DNA of 64,000 bases, taken from positions 19,156 through 83,155 of the forward strand of contig CAWIQS010000002.1 of NCBI GenBank assembly GCA_963838295.1, given 5' to 3'. The DNA comes from an uncultured Acidobacteriaceae bacterium (GTDB lineage Bacteria > Acidobacteriota > Terriglobia > Terriglobales > Acidobacteriaceae). The translations under genes and the position numbers were made by a program. Shown in pieces: positions 18,741-45,644 of the stretch. The notes under the pieces were generated by a model. That model was not told the origin of the DNA. It worked only from the letters and a program-made list of their open reading frames with translations, and did not search any database. Position 1 is the stretch's first letter; each line of letters begins with the position of its first letter.

Positions 18741-20567
18741 CTACGAGCTGAACTGCTCAGCCTTCTCCCAGCGCTTCGGCCGGCGATTCTGCTGCAGGAT
18801 TTTCTTGCGCAAGCGCAGCGACTTCGGCGTAATCTCCACCAATTCATCATCCGCGATGAACTCAATGGCCTGCTCCAGGTTCAGCGTCTTGTAGGGCACA
18901 AGGCGAATCGCGTCATCCGCACTCGATGCGCGCATGTTGGTCAGCTTCTTTTCGCGCACTACGTTGACATCGAGATCGTTGTCGCGCGAGTGCTCGCCCA
19001 CCACCATGCCTTCGTACACATCCACCCCCGCACCGACAAACAGAATGCCGCGCTCCTGCAATCCGTTCAGCGAATAGGTCGTTGTCAATCCCTGGCGGTC
19101 GGCTATCAGGGCGCCCGTGGGCCGCTGCGGAATCTCGCCCTGGTAAGGAATGTATCCATCGAAGAGCGAATTCATGACGATGGTGCCGCGCGTCTCCGTC
19201 AGCATTTCGCTGCGCAGGCCGATCAGCCCGCGACTGGGTACGCGGAAATCCATGCGCACGCGCCCCGAGCCGTGATTGTGCATCTTCGTCATCTCGCCTT
19301 TGCGAGGACCGAGCTTCTCGATTACTACGCCCGTGTGCTGCTCTGGAACGTCGATGGTGAGGTGCTCCACCGGCTCCATTCGTGTGCCTTCGACCACTTT
19401 CGTGACGATCTCCGGCCGACCGGCCAGCAGTTCGAATCCTTCACGGCGCATCATCTCGATCAGAATCGCAAGCTGAAGTTCGCCGCGGCCCAGCACCTTG
19501 AAAGTATCGGGCGAGCCCGTCTCTTCCACGCGGATCGACACGTTCGTCAGCAGCTCTTTTTCAAGCCGTTCGCGCAGGTTGCGGCTCGTCACATACGTGC
19601 CTTCTTTCCCCGCAAACGGTGAATTGTTCACGCTGAACGTGATTGCGATCGTAGGCTCGTCGATAATGATGAGCGGCAGCGGCGCAGGCGTTTCAAGCGA
19701 AGTGATGGTCTCGCCGATGGTGATGCCTTCCACACCGGCCACGGCAACAATGTCACCCATGGTCGTTTCGGTCGTCTCGGTACGCTTCAACCCGGAGAAC
19801 GTAAACAGCTTGGTGATGCGCGTCTTCATCAGCGATCCATCGCGCTTTGAGATATTCACGTCGTCACCCGCATGCAGCGTTCCCTGAAACACGCGGCAGA
19901 TGGCGATGCGTCCGAAGTAGTCAGAGTAGTCAAGATTGGTGACGAGAATCTGCAGCGGCGCGTCGACATCGCCAGTAGCCGCAGGAATCGTCGAAACAAT
20001 CGTCTCGAACAGCGGCTGCAGGTTCTCTCCCGGCTTGGCCAGGTCTAACGTGGCCGTCCCAGCCTTGGCCACCGCATAGAGCACCGGAAAATCCAGCTGC
20101 GACTCTTCCGCATCGAGATCGATGAAAAGATCGTAAATTTCGTTGAGCACTTCCTGCGGACGCGCATCGGGGCGGTCGATCTTGTTGATCACCACGATCG
20201 GCTTGAGTTTTGCTTCGAGTGCCTTGGCCAGCACGTAGCGCGTCTGCGGCAGCGGACCCTCAGCGGCATCGACCAGCAGCATCACGCCGTCCACCATCTT
20301 GAGCGCGCGCTCCACCTCGCCGCCGAAATCGGCGTGACCCGGCGTATCGACAATATTGATCTTGCCGCCTTCAAAATTGACGGCGGTGTTTTTGGCAAGG
20401 ATGGTGATGCCGCGCTCGCGCTCCAGGTCGTTCGAATCCATCACGCGCTCGGCAACTTGCTCGTTGGCGCGGAAGGTGCCGGACTGGCGAAGCATGGCGT
20501 CAACGAGGGTAGTCTTACCGTGGTCAACGTGGGCGATGATGGCGATATTGCGTATCGTCTGGCTCAC
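18741..20567 (-). CDS. typA: Translational GTPase TypA/BipA
   Basis: [59 protein letters not shown]. Confidence 0.98.
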
Positions 20568-32458: not shown

Positions 32459-33607
32459 ATGTATTACATCGGACTTGATGTTCACAAGAAAACGATCAGC
32501 TATTGCGTGAAGGACGCGGCCGGCAAGATCCACAGTGAAGGCAAGATCGGATCGACGCGGCGTGAACTTGATGCCTGGATCAAAACCCTTCCCCAACCCC
32601 GGATGATGGCCATGGAAGCGACGATCTTCACCGGATGGATCTACGATCACCTTCTTCCTCATGCTGAAAAAGTGAAGGTGGCGCACCCGCTGATGCTGCG
32701 AGCAATCGCCGCAGCCAAGCGGAAGAACGACAAGATCGATGCCAGCAAGATCGCCGACTGTCTTCGTTGCGATTTTCTTCCGGAGTGCTACATGACATCA
32801 ACCGAGATCCGCGACCGGCGGCGAACTCTGCGCTACCGCGGACTGCTGGTGAAGCAGATGGTTCAGATGAAGAACCGGATCTCGGGTTTGCTGATGGAGA
32901 CCGGCGTGAGCTACAACAAGCAGCGATTGCACAAGGTGGGCTACTTCACCGAGCTGATGTCGGGCAACGAAGAGATCGACTGTGTCAGGCCGCTGCTGAA
33001 GCTGAGCCGGGAGACGATCAATCGATCACAGAAGCTGGACTATGCACTGGTGAGTTCTCTCGAGCGCGACCCGTTGCTGGCCGAGCGGCTGAAGCGGTTG
33101 AGAACCGTTCCCGGAGTGGGTCCGATCACGGCGCTGACCTGGGTTCTGGAGATCGGGGATGTGGTGCGCTTCCGATCGATCAAACAGGCCATCAGCTATT
33201 GCGGACTGTGCGGAGCCGAGAAGCGTTCAGCTGACAAGGTCGTGCGCACGCCGATTTCCAAGCAGCGCAACAAGCATATCCAGCAGGTGCTGGTGGAAGC
33301 GGCGAAGCTGGCACCGCGATACAGCCATGAACTGGCCTTGATCTACGAAAAGGAAAAGAAGCAGAGAGGCAATCGCAACCGCGCCACGCTGGCCGTAGCC
33401 AGGAAGATGGTGTTAACCGGCGGTAATTTCCGCATGCGCGGTAATTCAGGAGTGACGATCAATGAGTGTGGTTTTGGCGGCCACTGCGACAACTACAGCA
33501 GCAGCTGCAAACCACAGCACGGGTGTCATCAGACGAAGAAGTCCGAGCCTGGATGGTATGCAGTCGAACGCAGAAAACAGGACTCGTCGCCTGCCGACGG
33601 CGATTGA
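32459..33607 (+). mobile_element. IS110-family transposase (DEDD recombinase)
   Basis: YIGLDVHK, AMEAT, KNDKIDA, TVPGVGPITA, YCGL, LVEAA, AVARKM; long non-coding stretch downstream. Confidence 0.9.
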
Positions 33608-35939: not shown

Positions 35940-36083
35940 ATGAAGCTCACTCTCGCCATTCTCGCGCTCATCGTCTTTGCCCTGTCCTTCGTGGCGGACT
36001 ACAAATGGCGTCAGTGGATGAACAAGCGCCGCGCGGATCACGATGCAACGCAAGCCTCCGACTCAGATCGCCGATCCCCGTAA
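35940..36083 (+). CDS. Small membrane protein (47 aa), not in the ORF track
   Basis: MKLTLAILALIVFALSFVADYKWRQWMNKRR...: one TM helix followed by basic residues. Confidence 0.55.
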   Translation: MKLTLAILALIVFALSFVADYKWRQWMNKRRADHDATQASDSDRRSP

Positions 36084-36220
36084 CGCGCGAAGGTTACCAG
36101 CACCTGCCTTGCAGCCGTCTCCGATGCCCCACACCCCGTCTTCCAAAGTGGAAATTCCCCTCTGCAACTTTCTTCCTTTGCAGCCGTTACAATGGGTATA
36201 AGGGAGTCGTCCAAGCCACC

Positions 36221-36916
36221 ATGCCCAGTAACCTTGCCCACGCCCTTCGCTTGCCCACGCTTCGCACCGCTGTATGGATGGGCCTCGCCACGGCGCTGCT
36301 CGCGGTCTCGCCCTTCGCGCGCGCCCAGTTTTCTGCACCGGCCACCACGCCCGTGCACGATCCCGCTGCCCTCAGGCCGCCCGCCGGCGCTCACGTGGCC
36401 ATCGTTGAATTTGAAGACATGGAGTGCCCCGACTGCGCCAATGCCAATCCGCTGCTCCGCGAAGCCGCAGCCAAGTACAGCATTCCCTGGGTCCGCCACG
36501 ACTTCCCTCTGCCGTTCCACGCCTGGAGCTTCCAGGCTGCCGTCAACGCCCGCTGGTTCGACACCAAGAGCAAGAAGATCGGCGACGACTACCGCGACGC
36601 CGTGTTTGCCAACCAGCCCTCCATCTCCAACCTTGATGTACTGCGTCAGTTCACTGAGAACTTCGCCAAGACCCACAACATCGCGCTGCCTTTTGCTATG
36701 GATCCCCAGGGCAAATTCGCCGCCGAGGTTAAGGCCGACTACGCGCTGGGTCAGCGCATCGGCATTGAACACACGCCGACGATCTGGATCACGACCGCCA
36801 ACAGCAAGGGCGCGCCGTTTGTCGAGGTCGTCGACCGCACCAAGCTTTATCAACTCATCGACCAGGCCGTTGCCGACACTCGATCGGCGCCTGTAAAAGC
36901 AACGGCACACAAATAA
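36221..36916 (+). CDS. DsbA-family thioredoxin-fold protein
   Basis: EFEDMECPDC, RHDFPL, GIEHTPT; start ATG 36221. Confidence 0.85.
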   Translation: MPSNLAHALRLPTLRTAVWMGLATALLAVSPFARAQFSAPATTPVHDPAALRPPAGAHVAIVEFEDMECPDCANANPLLREAAAKYSIPWVRHDFPLPFHAWSFQAAVNARWFDTKSKKIGDDYRDAVFANQPSISNLDVLRQFTENFAKTHNIALPFAMDPQGKFAAEVKADYALGQRIGIEHTPTIWITTANSKGAPFVEVVDRTKLYQLIDQAVADTRSAPVKATAHK

Positions 36917-36946
36917 TGTCGTTGTAGTTCCGGGCCCCACTTTCCC

Positions 36947-37396
36947 ATGTCAGACTTTCGCCATGTCGTAGAAATTCGAGTTTCACCGGCAGACGTCTGG
37001 AAAGTACTGCTCGATGTCGAACGCTGGCCCGAGTGGACCACCTCCGTCAGCAAGGTCCAGCGCATGGATATCGGCCCTCTGACCCTGGGGAGCCGCACCC
37101 GCATCTGGCAGCCGAAGCTCATGCCCGCCGTCTGGCAGGTCACCTCGCTCGACGAACAGCGCCACATCTTCGCCTGGACCACCCACACATTCGGCATCAA
37201 GATCAACGCCCGCCACCAGGTGGACGCCATCGGCGCGCGCAGCCGCGTCACCCTCTCGCTCACCTACACCGGCGTCGTCGGAGCCGTCCTGGCCCGCGCC
37301 TACCGCGACCTCAACTGGGACTACCTCGCCCGCGAAGCCAACGGCCTCCGCGGCCACTGCGAAGCCCCGGTAGTTCACCACGCGCAGGCGCGGTGA
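36947..37396 (+). CDS. SRPBCC (polyketide cyclase-like) family protein
   Basis: SPADVWKVLLDVERWPEWT. Confidence 0.85.
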   Translation: MSDFRHVVEIRVSPADVWKVLLDVERWPEWTTSVSKVQRMDIGPLTLGSRTRIWQPKLMPAVWQVTSLDEQRHIFAWTTHTFGIKINARHQVDAIGARSRVTLSLTYTGVVGAVLARAYRDLNWDYLAREANGLRGHCEAPVVHHAQAR

Positions 37397-37962: not shown

Positions 37963-38047
37963 TTCTGCATCCTTCCCTTTAGTCCAGCAGAAGTGAGAGT
38001 TCTCCGATAAATTGGGTTCCACAGAGCCCTTTGGAGGAGGACTTCAG

Positions 38048-38314
38048 ATGCGGAAGAGCCGGTACACGGAAGAGCAGATTGTAGGGATATTAAAGGAGTC
38101 GGAGGCGGGTCTGGAGACAGCGGAGCTGTGTCGCAAGCATGGGATCAGCGACAAGACGTTTTACCGCTGGAAGGCGAAGTACGGTGGGCTGGAAGTGAGC
38201 GAAGCGCAGCGGCTTCGTCAACTGGAAGAAGAGAACCGCAAGCTCAAGCAGCTGGTAGCCGAACAGGCTTTGGACATCGTCGGATTCAAGGCGGTGCTAT
38301 CAAAAAAGTGGTAA
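38048..38314 (+). CDS. IS3 transposase OrfA (HTH)
   Basis: MRKSRYTEEQIVGIL...CRKHGISDKTFYRWKAKYGG...LEEENRKLKQLVAEQ. Confidence 0.9.
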   Translation: MRKSRYTEEQIVGILKESEAGLETAELCRKHGISDKTFYRWKAKYGGLEVSEAQRLRQLEEENRKLKQLVAEQALDIVGFKAVLSKKW

Positions 38315-39156
38315 GCCCACAGGCCAGGAGAGAAGCCGTCGCGGTATTTAGGACTGCGACGGACTGTTCGGAACGGCATGCCTGTGGGCAGCTGGAAGTG
38401 TTGCGAGCTATGTTGCGCTACGGTAGGCGGGAGAGGCGCTTTGCCGAAGCCAACGGTCGTCTGCGCGTTCGCTTGAGGGATTTGGCAGAAGATAGACGTC
38501 GCTGGGGCTATAGTGGGTTACATGTTCTGTTGCAGAGGGAAGGCTGGACGGTGAACAGCAAACGGGTCTACGGGATATAGGTGGAAGAGAAGCTGATGGT
38601 GAGTAGAAGTAAGAGGAGATGTGGGATCTGAGTGAAGGTGAGAGTGATGTTGGTAGAGTTAGTAAGGAAGAAGGAGATATGGAAGATGGATTTTTTTTAG
38701 GATGTATTGGTTTTTGGTAGTAAGATAAGTAAGTTGTGGATTGAAGATGAGTATAAGAGGGAGATGTTGGTGATAGAAGTGGATATCTCGTTGTTGGTAT
38801 TGTGAGTAGTAAGAGTGTTGGATAGGTTATGGTAATATAGAGGTTTGTTAGTAAGGATTGTTATTGATAAAGGTATGGAGTTTATTTAGAAGGTTTTGGA
38901 TGAGTGGGTATATGAGAATAAGGTTATATTGTATTTTATTATATGAGGATGGTAGATGGAGAATGGTTATATAGAAAGTTTATATGGTAAGTTAAGAGAG
39001 GAGTGTTTTAAAGAATATTGGTTTTTTACTTTGGAAGATGAGAGGGAGATTATAGAAAGTTGGTGGATAGATTATAAATAGGTGTGTTAGTATAGAGTTT
39101 TGGGTTATTTGATATTTGAGGAATTTGTAAAGGGTTATGTAAATGTGGAAAGTTAA
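38311..39156 (+). pseudogene. IS3 transposase OrfB (DDE) with many premature stops caused by loss of C
   Basis: Frame is kept without indels but codons expected to contain C carry T, A or G instead; stops at 38578 and onward. Confidence 0.8.
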
Positions 39157-39357
39157 AAAAGTTTAAATATTTATATAGTATTGATGTTGTTTGAGAAATG
39201 AATTTGTAGTTAAACTTTAATTAGAGTGCTATTATTTGTATGGATTAAGAAGGGTGTTCTTCGGCATCTCTCTGACCGGACTAGTCACACGGGTGTCATT
39301 CTGAACGAACGGAACCGCAAACGCAAAAAAGAACAGGTGCGTAAGGCCCCTGTTCTT

Positions 39358-39408
39358 TCTGTTCACTGCACACTGTTCACTGTCCACTGACCACTGTCCA
39401 CTGTTCAC
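39358..39408 (-). repeat. Heptamer repeat, same family as 37395, opposite strand
   Basis: CTGTTCACTGCACACTGTTCACTGTCCACTGACCACTGTCCACTGTTCACT right after the radical SAM stop. Confidence 0.85.
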
Positions 39409-40436
39409 TAAAGCTGTATCTTCACCAGCTCGCCCTGCTGCCCCGGCGAAACTGTGCTGGTCTGCGGAGCCCTCCAGTGGTCGATGTGGCTGATGCGGTG
39501 CACGCATCCAATCGTGCAATTCGGCGCGCAGCTCTTCGCCGTCAAAAACTCCCGCTTCACATCCGCGGTCGTGTACTCGCGCAAGCGGCACACCCGGATA
39601 CCCTCTCTGCTGCGAGCAGTAATGCACCAGCCCGTCCTCGCAGATATACAGATACCGCGACCCCGCCCTGCAGCGCCACTCATTCTCGCGCCCCTGCACA
39701 ATCGCTTCCTGAAACGCGTCGAACTGCGCGTAGTTGGTCTTCTTCCGATTCGTCATCTCGAAGTAGACCTTCGCCTCGTCCGGCTTCAGCGGCTTCAGCT
39801 GCCCGTCGCCATCATGAATAATCCCGATCGTCGACTCGAACCCCAGCTCCAGCGCCCGCTTCCCAATCACCAGCGCATCATTCGGATCCTTGAAGCCCCC
39901 GCCCACCACCGAATTGATGTTCACGTGAAACTCGGCATGCTCGGCCAGCATCTGCAGCTTCTTGTCCAGAACCTTCAGGCTCTTCTTCGAGATCTCATCC
40001 GGGCTCCAGATTATCGATCGAGATCTGCATGTGATCCAGACCCGCCGCGATTCAGCCGCTCGATCCGGTCAACATTTAGGAGATATCCATTCGTGATCAT
40101 CCCCGCAATCGCGCCCGTCTTGCGCATGCGCACAATGATGTCATCTAAATTAGGGTGCGTCAGCGGCTCTCCGCCCGAGATCCCGATCATGGCCGTCCCC
40201 AGCCGCCCCAGGTGGTCGATCCGCCGCAGCATCTCGTCCAGCGGGACAGGCTCAGAAACCTTGTCGTATTCGTTGCAGTAGGCGCAGGAGAGATTGCAGA
40301 ATCGCGCCGGAACTATCTGCGCCAGAACAGGATGCGACGTAGACGCCAGCGCCCGCGCCACCATCGCATACTCCCGCGCCTTGCGCCGAGCCGCAATCAG
40401 CTTTCCCCTAGCCGTAGATCTCCGGGGAACTGCCAT
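39408..40436 (-). pseudogene. Radical SAM protein with three apparent +1 frameshifts (real or sequencing error)
   Basis: CNLSCAYC, SGGEPL, ITNG, C-terminal CRAG...YC...C..C..GC; frames join after removing single bases near 40046, 40002 and 39579. Confidence 0.75.
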
Positions 40437-40499
40437 TCTTACTATTGAAACATAGTCCGGACCCACTTTGAGCAGTACGTCAGCCCAACTTCAAATGGA

Positions 40500-41447
40500 C
40501 TATAGTGGCCGGTGAGTTGAGAGCAAATGATTTAGAGCGGATGCTCCGTACTTCCTAGCGAGTCTCTCAAGGAATAGTGGCTCGACGGATTTGATGAAGG
40601 AAAGCATTCCCGAAAACTCGGCGATTTCTTTCTCGTTAAGGGCACCCTGTATGTACCTATGAAACCTAGCCCGGATTAGCCTTTTCTTTTCTCTTCCTAT
40701 CGAGACCACGCCGTCGTTCGCAAGAACAAGACCAGTTACTCTTCTGAGGCCTTTCGTGGAAGCATGAACGGTCTTCGCTTCATTCAGTACCAACCGCGGA
40801 GGTCGGGTTTTCTTACAAATCTCGCCAACCTGCGTTTCAATTTCACGCAGGACCCCTCGGGCGTTCGTTGAGAAGGACAAATCGTCTGCGTATCGGGTAT
40901 AAGTAACGCCGCGTCCAGCGCAAAGAGCACTTACTTTTAGATCGAAGTTGTACAGCAATATATTCGAAAGAAGAGGCGAACTCGGTGCACCAATCGAGAG
41001 TTGAAGAACATTCCCGCGCTTTCTTCTCCAGAATAGAATTCTCGAAATATAGCCGATCTCCTCTTCAGTCCACACAGAGGCGAGAGGGTTCAAACGCATG
41101 AACTTTTGAAAATCCGTCGATTTGATGGACGGGAAGAAATTCTTGAAGTCGAGCTTGCACAGGAATTGGTGGGCCGCATGCGGCGCTGTATTGTCCAAGA
41201 TGCTCTTGCCTTTGCGGTACGCGAAGGCAGCAGGATGAACCGGGAACGCCGCTAAGACATGCTCCATGACCCAATACTGCAGCGGCTTCACCTCACGAGC
41301 AGGCTGCGCAATCGTACGCTTCTTGCCGGGAGTCCTCTTTGCAATCTGGTAGACCTTGTATCGATAAGGCGCAGAATTCACAAGGTAGAGCAAGTCCTTC
41401 GGTGGCAGCGCGAGATCACTCGAAAGCAAGTCCAAAAATTTGCTCAT
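40500..41447 (-). CDS. Retron reverse transcriptase (St85/Ec86-like)
   Basis: KRTIAQP, region X NTAPH, KLDFKNFFPSI, LSIGAPSSPLLSN, YTRYADDLSFS, region Y VTGLVL; 315 aa. Confidence 0.92.
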   Translation of the reverse strand: MSKFLDLLSSDLALPPKDLLYLVNSAPYRYKVYQIAKRTPGKKRTIAQPAREVKPLQYWVMEHVLAAFPVHPAAFAYRKGKSILDNTAPHAAHQFLCKLDFKNFFPSIKSTDFQKFMRLNPLASVWTEEEIGYISRILFWRRKRGNVLQLSIGAPSSPLLSNILLYNFDLKVSALCAGRGVTYTRYADDLSFSTNARGVLREIETQVGEICKKTRPPRLVLNEAKTVHASTKGLRRVTGLVLANDGVVSIGREKKRLIRARFHRYIQGALNEKEIAEFSGMLSFIKSVEPLFLERLARKYGASALNHLLSTHRPL

Positions 41448-42379
41448 GGTGTCGCCCCTGTCGCTCGTCTTTTGAAGGCAGCAAGCGCGCGAGCTTTCTC
41501 TGGTGTCAGGGGTAAATCTTGGCGGAGGAGTGTCCTCAACCTTGATCGATCTTTGGGTGTTTTCGGCGCATAGAGCACATATTCAGGCGCGCCTGCAGGA
41601 TTCATGTAGTAGTCCACGTTTCCATAGCGAAGGGAGGATATAAGTTCAAGCTGCTCAAGTAGGAATAAGTATTTTTTCAGTTCTTGATTCTTTATTATTA
41701 CGTTCAGACCATTGAGGATCTCTTGAATTTCGTGCTGGAGGATCACTACATTCAGCGTGATTAGATCCGCAATCAGAAGCATCAGATGACCATGATCGGC
41801 TTTTCGGAAAGCGGCCGTTTTCGGCTTTTTCGTAAGAATCGCTTGGATCTCTCGTTCCACACCATCGAGCGTGTCGCTTGCACCGGCAGGGTCAATTCTG
41901 GTCGCGCCTCCGCCCGTAGGAAATGAAAGCCACGGGTAAGCTAAGACGCTGTCCGGTCTGATCCTGCGCGTATGCTCCACAAGACCATTTCGAATGAACG
42001 ACTGCTGCCTGAAGTAAGAATCCTCAATGACGACAACGAGCTTATCTTGCAGCAAGTCCATCTGGGAGAAGGCACCAAACTCAGCGATTGCACCTGGACT
42101 TTCTACAAACAACAATACGCAGGCCGAAAGACCCGCAAGGTGCCCTTCCAATTCCAGAAGATCGTCAAATAGCTTTCGGGATTGGTACCACTCGTCCGCC
42201 TTTTCGGCGAGCTGAACTTTCTTGAAGAGGACAGGATTAATCTGTACTTTATCTCTGTAAAAATGGGCGCGGAGGGAGTGTTCGAAGTCGTTTAGAGGCC
42301 CTCCGCACAAAAATATGTAGTCAGGCTGATTCAGAATGGTGAATGCGTTCGAATCTACCGAGTCTGTGAATACACCCAC
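41444..42379 (-). CDS. Retron type II-A effector (nucleoside deoxyribosyltransferase-like N-terminal domain)
   Basis: IFLCGG, DLLELE..LA, FVESPGAIAEFGAF match the Ec86/St85 effector motif ESPGSFTELGAF; ATGA overlap with the RT. Confidence 0.85.
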   Translation of the reverse strand: MGVFTDSVDSNAFTILNQPDYIFLCGGPLNDFEHSLRAHFYRDKVQINPVLFKKVQLAEKADEWYQSRKLFDDLLELEGHLAGLSACVLLFVESPGAIAEFGAFSQMDLLQDKLVVVIEDSYFRQQSFIRNGLVEHTRRIRPDSVLAYPWLSFPTGGGATRIDPAGASDTLDGVEREIQAILTKKPKTAAFRKADHGHLMLLIADLITLNVVILQHEIQEILNGLNVIIKNQELKKYLFLLEQLELISSLRYGNVDYYMNPAGAPEYVLYAPKTPKDRSRLRTLLRQDLPLTPEKARALAAFKRRATGATP

Positions 42380-42409
42380 TCTCGAGCCCGACTCTCTAAC
42401 CGAAATTGT

Positions 42410-42611
42410 TGCTCTCTACCTTCGAGATAAGCGCGTCGAGGAAAAATTTCTCAACGCGTTCCACTCATCGTTGATAATCCGGTTGGCGGCACATAGCGTT
42501 GAGGAAGTTTTCCTCGACGCGCTGGTAAATGCTACCAATCGTTCCCAGTCCGGCGAAACGCCAGACTTCACCCCTGACATTTGAATCTTTGGGTGAACCA
42601 CGTAAAGAGCA
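42410..42611 (-). ncRNA. Retron msr-msd non-coding RNA
   Basis: a1/a2 10-bp pairing (42602-42611 with 42410-42419, one G-U) followed by a candidate branching G at 42601; two msr hairpins (TTCACCC/GGGTGAA and AGTCTGGCG-TTT-CGCCGGACT); 28-bp msd stem 42430-42457 with 42496-42523, 2 mismatches. Confidence 0.8.
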
Positions 42612-42713
42612 TCCCCATTGTGAGCGATGCCTGCCACTGTGTCAACGGGACCGCTCTGACGGGTAGTTGGTCAGTTATCTGAGACCACAAACACGGTGGG
42701 TCGTCCGCTGGGC

Positions 42714-44758: not shown

Positions 44759-45086
44759 GGCATGTGAGCCCACCACCGACTCTCCAATCGTCAAGTACCT
44801 CAGCAGGTCGCGATGACCGGCGGCCCTCTCGTTACCAACAAGCCGACGACTTTCCCACGCATTGTGAGAGGAGTATCTTCCTCTCATGGCGAGTTTCAAG
44901 CGCAAGGGGCCGAAGTCGACGCGGGCTGGATGTCTGCTGTGCAAGCCACAGAAGCGCCAGGGCCAGCGACTCGACCTGCGCGTCACCTTCAGCGAGCGTC
45001 GCCGCGCGGAGGCAGCAAATTCCGAGCTAGCCTCGTCGGCCGAAACATCCCTTCAAGGTTGAAGTAGTGCAGGACTTGTCCCCTCC

Positions 45087-45539
45087 ATGAAGAACCTGTT
45101 TCAACCGGAGACCGTGCGGGAGTTGAAAGACCGCCTCGCGAATCTCCACCAAGACAGCCCGCACCTGTGGGGCAAGATGACGCCGGCGCAGGCCGTGGCG
45201 CACTGCACCATCGGCATGGAGCTGGCTCTCGGCGACCGGCGTCCGCCGCGTATGCTGATTGGCCGCCTCATCGGGCGCGTGATCAAGCCAATGGCATTCA
45301 AAGAGAACGAGCCCATGCGCCGCAACTCCCCCACCATCCCCGGCTTCGAAGTCTCTGACAACCGGGACCTCCCCGTCGAACGCGAGAAACTCAGCGCCAT
45401 CCTCGACCGCTTTGCCGCCGCCGGTTCTGCCGGTTGCACAACGCATCCGCACAGCTTCTTTGGCCGCCTCACCCCCGACGAGTGGTCCATGTGGATGTAC
45501 AAACACATCGACCACCACCTTCAGCAATTCGGCGTCTAG
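45087..45539 (+). CDS. DinB-like DUF1569 family protein
   Basis: WGKMTPAQAVAHC, HPHSFFGRLT.DEW...YKHIDHHLQQFGV. Confidence 0.85.
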   Translation: MKNLFQPETVRELKDRLANLHQDSPHLWGKMTPAQAVAHCTIGMELALGDRRPPRMLIGRLIGRVIKPMAFKENEPMRRNSPTIPGFEVSDNRDLPVEREKLSAILDRFAAAGSAGCTTHPHSFFGRLTPDEWSMWMYKHIDHHLQQFGV

Positions 45540-45644
45540 CGGCGGGCGGTTCACCCAAGCTCTGAAACTGAACTCCCCGTGTCATCGTGAGCGGAGCAGT
45601 TTGGAACTCCATGAACGCCTCTGCGTCCATGGGGCAAGCCTGAC

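Follow-up and report, generated by a model that had tools for sequence, protein, structure and literature searches.

The stretch of DNA analysed here (the window, 64,000 nucleotides (nt) long, positions 19,156 to 83,155 of contig CAWIQS010000002.1 in GenBank assembly GCA_963838295.1) comes from an uncultured Acidobacteriaceae bacterium and carries a retron cassette on its minus strand. One promoter leads into an msr-msd RNA gene, the gene of an RcaT-type effector and the gene of a retron reverse transcriptase (RT), in that order; the unit runs from 42645 to 40500, and the two protein genes (42379-41444 and 41447-40500) share an ATGA overlap at 41447-41444 on the minus strand (Table 1). All three parts are jointly conserved in related loci, and the order msr-msd, effector, RT is also annotated in loci of E. 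coli, Vibrio and Tunturiibacter. A preliminary description of this DNA had proposed a complete type II-A retron between 40500 and 42611, with non-coding RNA (ncRNA), effector and RT following one another on the minus strand through ATGA coupling. The coordinates of the open reading frames (ORFs) bear out the order and the coupling, while PADLOC, the cut-offs of NCBIfam and the covariation of the RNA stems bear out the type. As for the span, its contents stand and its upstream limit has to be moved, as the unit reaches about 35 nt farther and takes in the 5' end of the ncRNA and the promoter. Overall, it is highly probable that an intact type II-A1 retron of the St85/Sen2 family is present on an Acidobacteriaceae chromosome, with a way of working like that proposed for Sen2, Eco1 and Eco7.

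Table 1. Features of the retron cassette, in window coordinates and in the order of the minus strand.
Feature	Coordinates	Strand	Basis or remark
Sigma-70-type promoter	42617..42645	-	-35 TTGACA 42645-42640, 17-nt spacer, -10 CACAAT 42622-42617
Retron ncRNA gene (msr-msd), ~210 nt	42406..42615	-	Covariance-model full-length match, 212.6 bits; fold; covariation
a1 inverted repeat, GCTCTTTAC (GCUCUUUAC)	42602..42610	-	Pairs with a2; helix 1
Predicted branching (priming) G	42601	-	First unpaired base past the a1/a2 stem, faces G42420
msr hairpin 1, variable sequence	42567..42597	-	Minimum-free-energy (MFE) fold; helix 2 covariation
msr hairpin 2, GUCUGGCG-UUU-CGCCGGAC, conserved sequence	42548..42566	-	Fold; alignment; helix 3
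GAUUGG motif and small hairpin 3; probable reverse-transcription stop, RNA-DNA hybrid region	42524..42540	-	ATTG invariant; role inferred; hairpin inside the conserved GAUUGG..UUUACC segment, 42540-42524
msd stem-loop	42430..42523	-	28-nt arms 42523-42496 and 42457-42430; 38-nt loop 42495-42458
Opposing G 42420 and a2 inverted repeat (GUAGAGAGC, GTAGAGAGC), 42419-42411	42411..42420	-	Pairing with a1
Effector (RcaT/STM3845 family), 311 amino acids (aa), GTG start	41444..42379	-	N-terminal NDT-like and C-terminal winged-helix domain
Retron RT (St85 family, clade 1), 315 aa	40500..41447	-	Pfam RVT_1, PADLOC RT_II-A, NCBIfam NF038233

Type II-A1 retrons combine an RT of clade 1 with an ncRNA of class IA/IIA1 (Mestre et al. 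2020, PMC7736814). For the RT of the cassette the best PADLOC model is RT_II-A (3e-119, 396 bits), followed by RT_I-A at 314 bits, with the second and third RT_II-A models at 205 and 194 bits; all 25 PADLOC models listed for the protein are retron RT models. It matches NCBIfam NF038233 (retron_St85_RT, 'retron St85 family RNA-directed DNA polymerase') at 340.9 bits against a cut-off of 235, and is about 40-42% identical to proteobacterial members of the St85 family. The nearest solved structures are RTs of Ec78/Ec83-type retrons (1e-64 to 1e-56), and the matches in the PDB are all retron RTs save the weakest, an entry titled simply 'RNA-directed DNA polymerase'. The YADD, VTG and other motif blocks that had been read from the translation are present, YADD at residues 186-189 (40892-40881) and VTG at residues 237-239, and the position of the retron 'NAxxH' motif reads NTAPH (residues 86-90). 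On these sequence matches the RT is assigned to clade 1 (the St85 family, shared with type I-A); the clade 9, Ec86-like RT that goes with type II-A3 was not found, Ec86 matching at 1e-42 as against 1e-64 for clade 1 RTs. Together with the class of the ncRNA, this makes the cassette type II-A1, and not type II-A3, by every sequence-level criterion examined, and the earlier comparison with Sen2, rather than with Ec86/Eco1 of subtype II-A3, was the right one.

The effector points to the same family. PADLOC identifies it as NDT_II-A (3e-67), NCBIfam NF038232 (STM3845_fam, 'retron St85 family effector protein') matches at 184.5 bits where the cut-off is 100, and its homologues carry Pfam PF28093 (STM3845). 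The ESPG..AE.GAF motif noticed earlier is indeed there, as VESPGAIAEFGAF at residues 92-104 (ESPG..AEFGAF, 42106-42068). An alignment of 33 homologues, the most distant at 26% identity, shows no variation at E78, E93 and E100 and more than 90% conservation at F23. E100 aligns with E106 of the Eco1 effector, which is changed in the inactive form of that protein (8qbl, E106A). The catalytic triad of Sen2 is F28/E85/E107, with spacings of 57 and 22 residues (preprint 10.64898/2026.10.13.758329). F23, E78 and E100, which lie 55 and 22 residues apart and mirror the Sen2 triad in spacing and motif, are therefore the predicted catalytic residues. An AlphaFold2 model of the protein (predicted local distance difference test (pLDDT) 90.4, predicted template modelling score (pTM) 0.88) has the effector of Retron-Eco1 as its sole significant match in a fold search of the PDB (E <= 0.001, 281-307 aligned columns), and the C-terminal part resembles the winged helices of MarR, PadR and ArsR.

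Upstream of the effector gene, the predicted RNA has the features expected of a retron: a1/a2 repeats that enclose two msr hairpins and an msd stem-loop, with a G at the end of the a1/a2 stem. The elements previously read from the letters, namely the a1/a2 pairing followed by G42601, the two msr hairpins and the 28-bp msd stem with its 38-nt loop, all hold. The MFE of the RNA is -95.4 kcal/mol against -66.2 +/- 4.6 for shuffled sequences (z = -6.3), and none of 200 shuffles folded as well; a search of Rfam with the ncRNA matched no family, even at E <= 10. The promoter ahead of it agrees with the consensus at 10 of 12 positions, and the distance from a TTGAC box to the downstream a1 core is 36 +/- 1 nt in 14 of 15 distinct loci, the fifteenth having two overlapping TTGAC boxes, of which the first is likewise at 36. 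Homology at the DNA level with the closest relative (locus L004, from an independent metagenome-assembled genome (MAG) of the Acidobacteriaceae) begins exactly at the -35 box, 42645. Given this boundary and the position of the promoter, transcription is expected to start a few bases upstream of a1, with the unit reaching about 42645.

Whether such an RNA is conserved was examined in relatives of the RT from genomes and metagenomes, which included MAGs of Acidobacteriaceae and Terracidiphilus, peat and soil metagenomes and one Rhodospirillales MAG. A common series of elements lies upstream in every locus that has the effector gene and enough upstream DNA, except the two Bdellovibrionales loci L007 and L008, whose effector matches are the weakest: GCTCTTTACG(C/T)G, a variable hairpin, GUCYGGCGYUUCGCCRGAC, GAUUGG..UUAYC, a long inverted repeat of unrelated sequence and GGUARAGAGC. 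Folded individually by MFE, 13 of 13 distinct sequences gave the same architecture. Plain MAFFT alignment misaligned the arms of the msd, and the alignment was instead made with a covariance model (R1) built from six sequences, that of the window and five close relatives from Acidobacteriaceae MAGs and peat metagenomes; a strict match threshold was applied, since the palindromic msd draws matches on the reverse strand. R1 has full-length matches in 12 distinct loci, in which standard pairs fill 94.6% of the cells; shuffling the columns lowers this figure to 77%, and sliding the 3' partners by 1-3 columns lowers it to 40-47%. Double-sided changes occur in 35 of the 56 pairs. The msd stem (helix 5) contributes double changes in 22 of 27 pairs, with 95.7% of cells paired, the a1/a2 stem in 5 of 10 pairs, with 95% paired, and msr hairpin 1 in all five modelled pairs; for the small hairpin 3 (helix 4) covariation is weak. 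Lack of covariation had been named beforehand as an outcome that would speak against a retron, and the homologous loci show strong covariation instead.

In three further loci, fetched through homologues of the effector, the same model has a full-length ncRNA match immediately ahead of the effector gene; one of the three is the isolate Tunturiibacter psychrotolerans (179 bits). It also finds proteobacterial retron ncRNAs in the expected places, those of a P4-like St85-family retron of E. coli (2.4e-11), an Ec78-type (I-A) retron of Klebsiella (locus L040, 1.1e-6) and a St85-family retron of Vibrio (2.1e-5), and msr hairpin 2 could be aligned in these St85/Ec78-type RNAs as well. These matches tie the RNA to class IA/IIA1, which is common to type I-A and type II-A1 retrons (PMC7736814).

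The conserved structure also allows the product of reverse transcription to be estimated. G42601 is invariant in the 13 aligned loci and is the putative primer. In the structure of Eco7 the a1/a2 stem ends in the branching G plus an opposing G, reverse transcription stops about 50 nt past the branching G, and positions -50 to -55 of the msr pair with nucleotides 72-77, the 3' end, of the msd DNA (PMC12673091). The first of these is the same arrangement as G42601 and G42420. When the Ec78-type locus L040 is aligned to the covariance model and the numbering of Eco7 is applied, the predicted stop falls near the conserved GAUUGG, at about 42536. The predicted multicopy single-stranded DNA (msDNA) would then measure about 116 nt, or about 112 nt after trimming of the ExoVII type.

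The msd itself has features that vary among the relatives. In its loop, UGCCGCCA near the 5' side and GUAU in the middle are kept in the window and in L004, L010, L012, L014 and L034, six loci that are saturated at synonymous coding sites, and the rest of the loop varies; L015 and similar relatives have a loop of 4 nt only. Each arm of the stem (42496-42523 and 42430-42457) is a near-perfect 25-nt palindrome, GCGTCGAGGAA-AAC-TTCCTCAACGC, with 10 of 11 pairs formed. The arm of L004 is identical, and none of 500 composition-matched shuffles reached its palindrome. Such arms would give the msDNA stem two-fold symmetry, or might let it refold as a pair of short hairpins. The palindromes belong to the subfamily of the window and L004 and appear weakly in L006 and L021. 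A family-wide rule was considered, as the pooled score is 56 against 41 +/- 3 for shuffles, and was set aside, because one subfamily accounts for that score and the palindrome is missing from the independent loci L002, L003, L019 and L024.

Taken together, these findings identify an ordinary new member of a well-described kind of anti-phage system, made of a small structured RNA, a toxin-like enzyme and a reverse transcriptase. Most likely, it would act as a tripartite toxin-antitoxin system of the Sen2 kind that protects by abortive infection, and the steps that follow, each of them inferred, are modelled on Sen2, Eco1 and Eco7. The RT would bind the a1/a2 stem of the ncRNA, prime from the 2'-OH of G42601 and copy the msd part, from 42421 to about 42536, into a single-stranded DNA of about 112-116 nt that would fold into a 28-bp hairpin. 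RNase H and probably ExoVII, the large subunit of which is encoded in the genome, would mature the product. The complex of RT and msDNA would keep the effector inactive through the winged-helix (DNA-binding) domain of the latter, a putative NDT-like, NAD+-using N-glycosidase or ADP-ribosyltransferase. A phage protein that modifies, binds or degrades the msDNA would then free the effector, which would arrest or kill the infected cell.

That the cassette functions against phages is suggested by its intact genes, conserved catalytic residues, conserved promoter and the mode of selection. Both ORFs are full length and free of stops, and a GTG/TTG start is conserved. In comparisons with relatives the proportion of nonsynonymous differences (pN) is 0.12-0.27, that of synonymous differences (pS) is saturated, and the ratio of nonsynonymous to synonymous rates (dN/dS) is 0.05-0.12 in the pairs for which it was computable. 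By these measures, both genes are under purifying selection.

Several considerations weigh against this picture and have to be set beside it. Production of msDNA, transcription, toxicity and phage defence are all predictions made from sequence. Fitting the covariation alignment to the structure of the model favours that structure; the signal is nevertheless argued to be real because the independent folds of single sequences and the slid controls agree with it. The msd contains no GATC, so that the trigger by Dam methylation known for Sen2 cannot apply here as such. Local sequence errors are visible 1.3 kb away, and single-base errors in the cassette are possible. Moreover, some clades of RcaT are dimeric and non-toxic alone (preprint 10.64898/2026.10.13.758329). 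This last point opens the way to a different working within the same family, in the manner of Eco1, in which a dimeric, intrinsically non-toxic RcaT would be active only in a retron filament or with an additional factor from host or phage, and the system would not amount to a simple toxin-antitoxin pair. Eco1, Eco3, Bth2, Vch3 and Cle1 represent such clades (2026 Sen2 preprint, 10.64898/2026.10.13.758329), the Eco1 effector is the only solved match to the fold, and sequence conservation at the tetramer interface is low, so that the oligomeric state cannot be read from the sequence; in the same preprint, an ipTM of 0.7 or higher for the tetramer was predictive of toxic clades. However, the RT, the class of the ncRNA and the gene order match the Sen2/St85 branch rather than Eco1, the RT resembles clade 1 enzymes far more closely than it does Ec86, and both proteins pass the cut-offs of the St85 families. 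An Eco1-like working is an alternative to be weighed, though on balance an unlikely one.

It is also conceivable that the cassette is a decaying or inactive remnant, making no msDNA and giving no defence. It lies among mobile elements (IS110 at 32459-33607, IS3 at 38000-39250), the adjoining radical SAM gene is split, and in the metagenomic relative L016 the RT is disrupted and the effector truncated. The degraded state of L016 indicates that decay is visible when it happens, and in the window both ORFs run to full length with every catalytic motif present, the ncRNA scores 212.6 bits in the model with all helices intact, the promoter is intact and the family is under strong purifying selection, which makes loss of function improbable. 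Still less credible is the notion that the cassette is foreign to this chromosome and was joined to it through misassembly of the metagenome. Its guanine-plus-cytosine (GC) content, about 50% as against about 60% in the flanks, is 10 points lower, and a cytosine-free stretch lies 1.3 kb from it. Yet L004 carries the retron in the same neighbourhood, with the same radical SAM gene directly downstream and with homologues of the window genes at 45027-45554 and 36005-37363 on either side, and all close relatives come from Acidobacteriaceae. This shared neighbourhood argues against misassembly, and leaves a Sen2-like retron resident in the chromosome as the preferred reading.

Within its family the cassette is a low-GC insert of sporadic occurrence. 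A homologue of the RT is present in three of 37 genomes of the same genus, the window's own included, and in none of 24 genomes from other families of the order, and the ncRNA model, applied with stricter filters, found no match in 200 other genomes sampled from the family. PADLOC returned no noteworthy matches in the 10 neighbouring ORFs that would mark a defence island. The window cassette shares 81% identity in the RT and 61% in the effector with L004, and 79% and 73%, respectively, with L012; that the two proteins have different nearest relatives suggests recombination between cassettes. A soil metagenome locus, L017, has an RT 56% identical to that of the window, with no NDT effector detected upstream and no match to the ncRNA model, and may be a cassette with a swapped effector. 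Filamentous phages of Pseudomonas (L041; PfAC01b and others), which are Pf-type inoviruses, carry a St85-family effector and a retron RT at one genome end. Their RT is 42.5% identical to that of the window; no ncRNA match was found in the 5.3 kb examined, in which the effector gene starts at base 1 of the record and the expected ncRNA site lies outside.

Two neighbours of the cassette deserve description in their own right. The IS3-family element at 37965-39250 is nearly free of cytosine on the plus strand in its 3' half (38580-39250, +). Compared with an intact copy in the same genome (G000:C3:211098..., locus L032), 176 of 179 substitutions between 38000 and 39199 fall at C, as 111 C>T, 53 C>A and 12 C>G changes, sporadically in 38000-38600 and at nearly every C beyond 38600. 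The radical SAM gene (39232-40466, minus strand) begins 34 nt past the RT and is split into two ORFs of 151 and 239 aa, probably by an indel error or a recent frameshift; its counterpart in L004 (L004:3954-5036) is intact, encodes 360 aa and starts 2 nt past the stop of the RT. As it adjoins the RT and lies in the block of DNA shared with L004, the gene was considered as a fourth component of the retron. It was rejected in that role: its homologues across Acidobacteriaceae metagenomes number at least 8000, with 85-92% identity for the best, and far outnumber those of the retron; it is absent beside the retron in the other loci; and it passes no curated family cut-off, viperin models matching the generic radical SAM core alone. 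Its abundance, and its absence at other loci, mark it as a conserved gene of the host and a neighbour of the retron.

The significance of the locus lies in its being a well-documented case, with coordinates to the base and a tested RNA structure, and our understanding of retrons is left as it was. The NDT-like RcaT family is the most common family of retron effectors, and to our knowledge no retron has been studied experimentally in Acidobacteriota, a soil phylum. For an RNA class that Rfam misses, a covariance model and an alignment of about 15 ncRNAs are now available. The predicted msDNA, at about 112-116 nt and with a 28-bp stem, would be unusually long for its class and could be tried as a template for editing. 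The absence of a Dam site makes the cassette a candidate for finding other triggers, and it is tempting, if speculative and rather doubtful, to suppose that the acidobacterial St85-type branch may sense a phage cue other than that of Sen2, with the enlarged, partly conserved loop and the palindromes as a possible dock for an effector dimer and target of a new kind of trigger.

Among known systems, Retron-Sen2 (St85 of Salmonella Typhimurium, type II-A1, msrmsd-rcaT-rrtT) is the natural point of reference. It shares with the window cassette the gene order, the RT family (NF038233), the effector family (NF038232, Pfam STM3845), the ncRNA class, an F/E/E triad with matching spacing and an a1/a2 stem that likewise ends with a G facing a G. 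The window cassette differs from it in the longer msd (28-bp stem, 38-nt loop), in the predicted length of the DNA, about 112-116 nt where the msDNA of St85 has 85 nt, in the missing GATC site and in the host phylum, Acidobacteriota. Retron-Eco1 (Ec86, type II-A3) has the same effector fold, NDT-like plus winged helix, with a catalytic Glu that aligns; in contrast, its RT belongs to clade 9 and that of the window to clade 1, its effector is dimeric and non-toxic alone, and its RT gene precedes the effector gene. Retron-Eco7 (Ec78) and Ec83, of type I-A, provide the closest solved RT structures and share the ncRNA class with the window cassette, and unlike it have no NDT effector.

Nearer to the host, surveys of retrons report hosts in Acidobacteriota (PMC13712802), and the cultured Tunturiibacter psychrotolerans (Acidobacteriaceae) has a comparable pair, with an effector 70% identical to that of the window, an adjacent RT at a 4-nt overlap and the ncRNA upstream; the NCBI annotation already names this effector 'retron St85 family effector protein'. 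That cassette occupies a different site, between uvrB and a 3-methyladenine glycosylase gene (L034:4930-6512), where the RT gene overlaps the start of the 3-methyladenine DNA glycosylase gene (Pur_DNA_glyco) by 4 nt and uvrB lies upstream, a placement among DNA-repair genes that may be due to chance.

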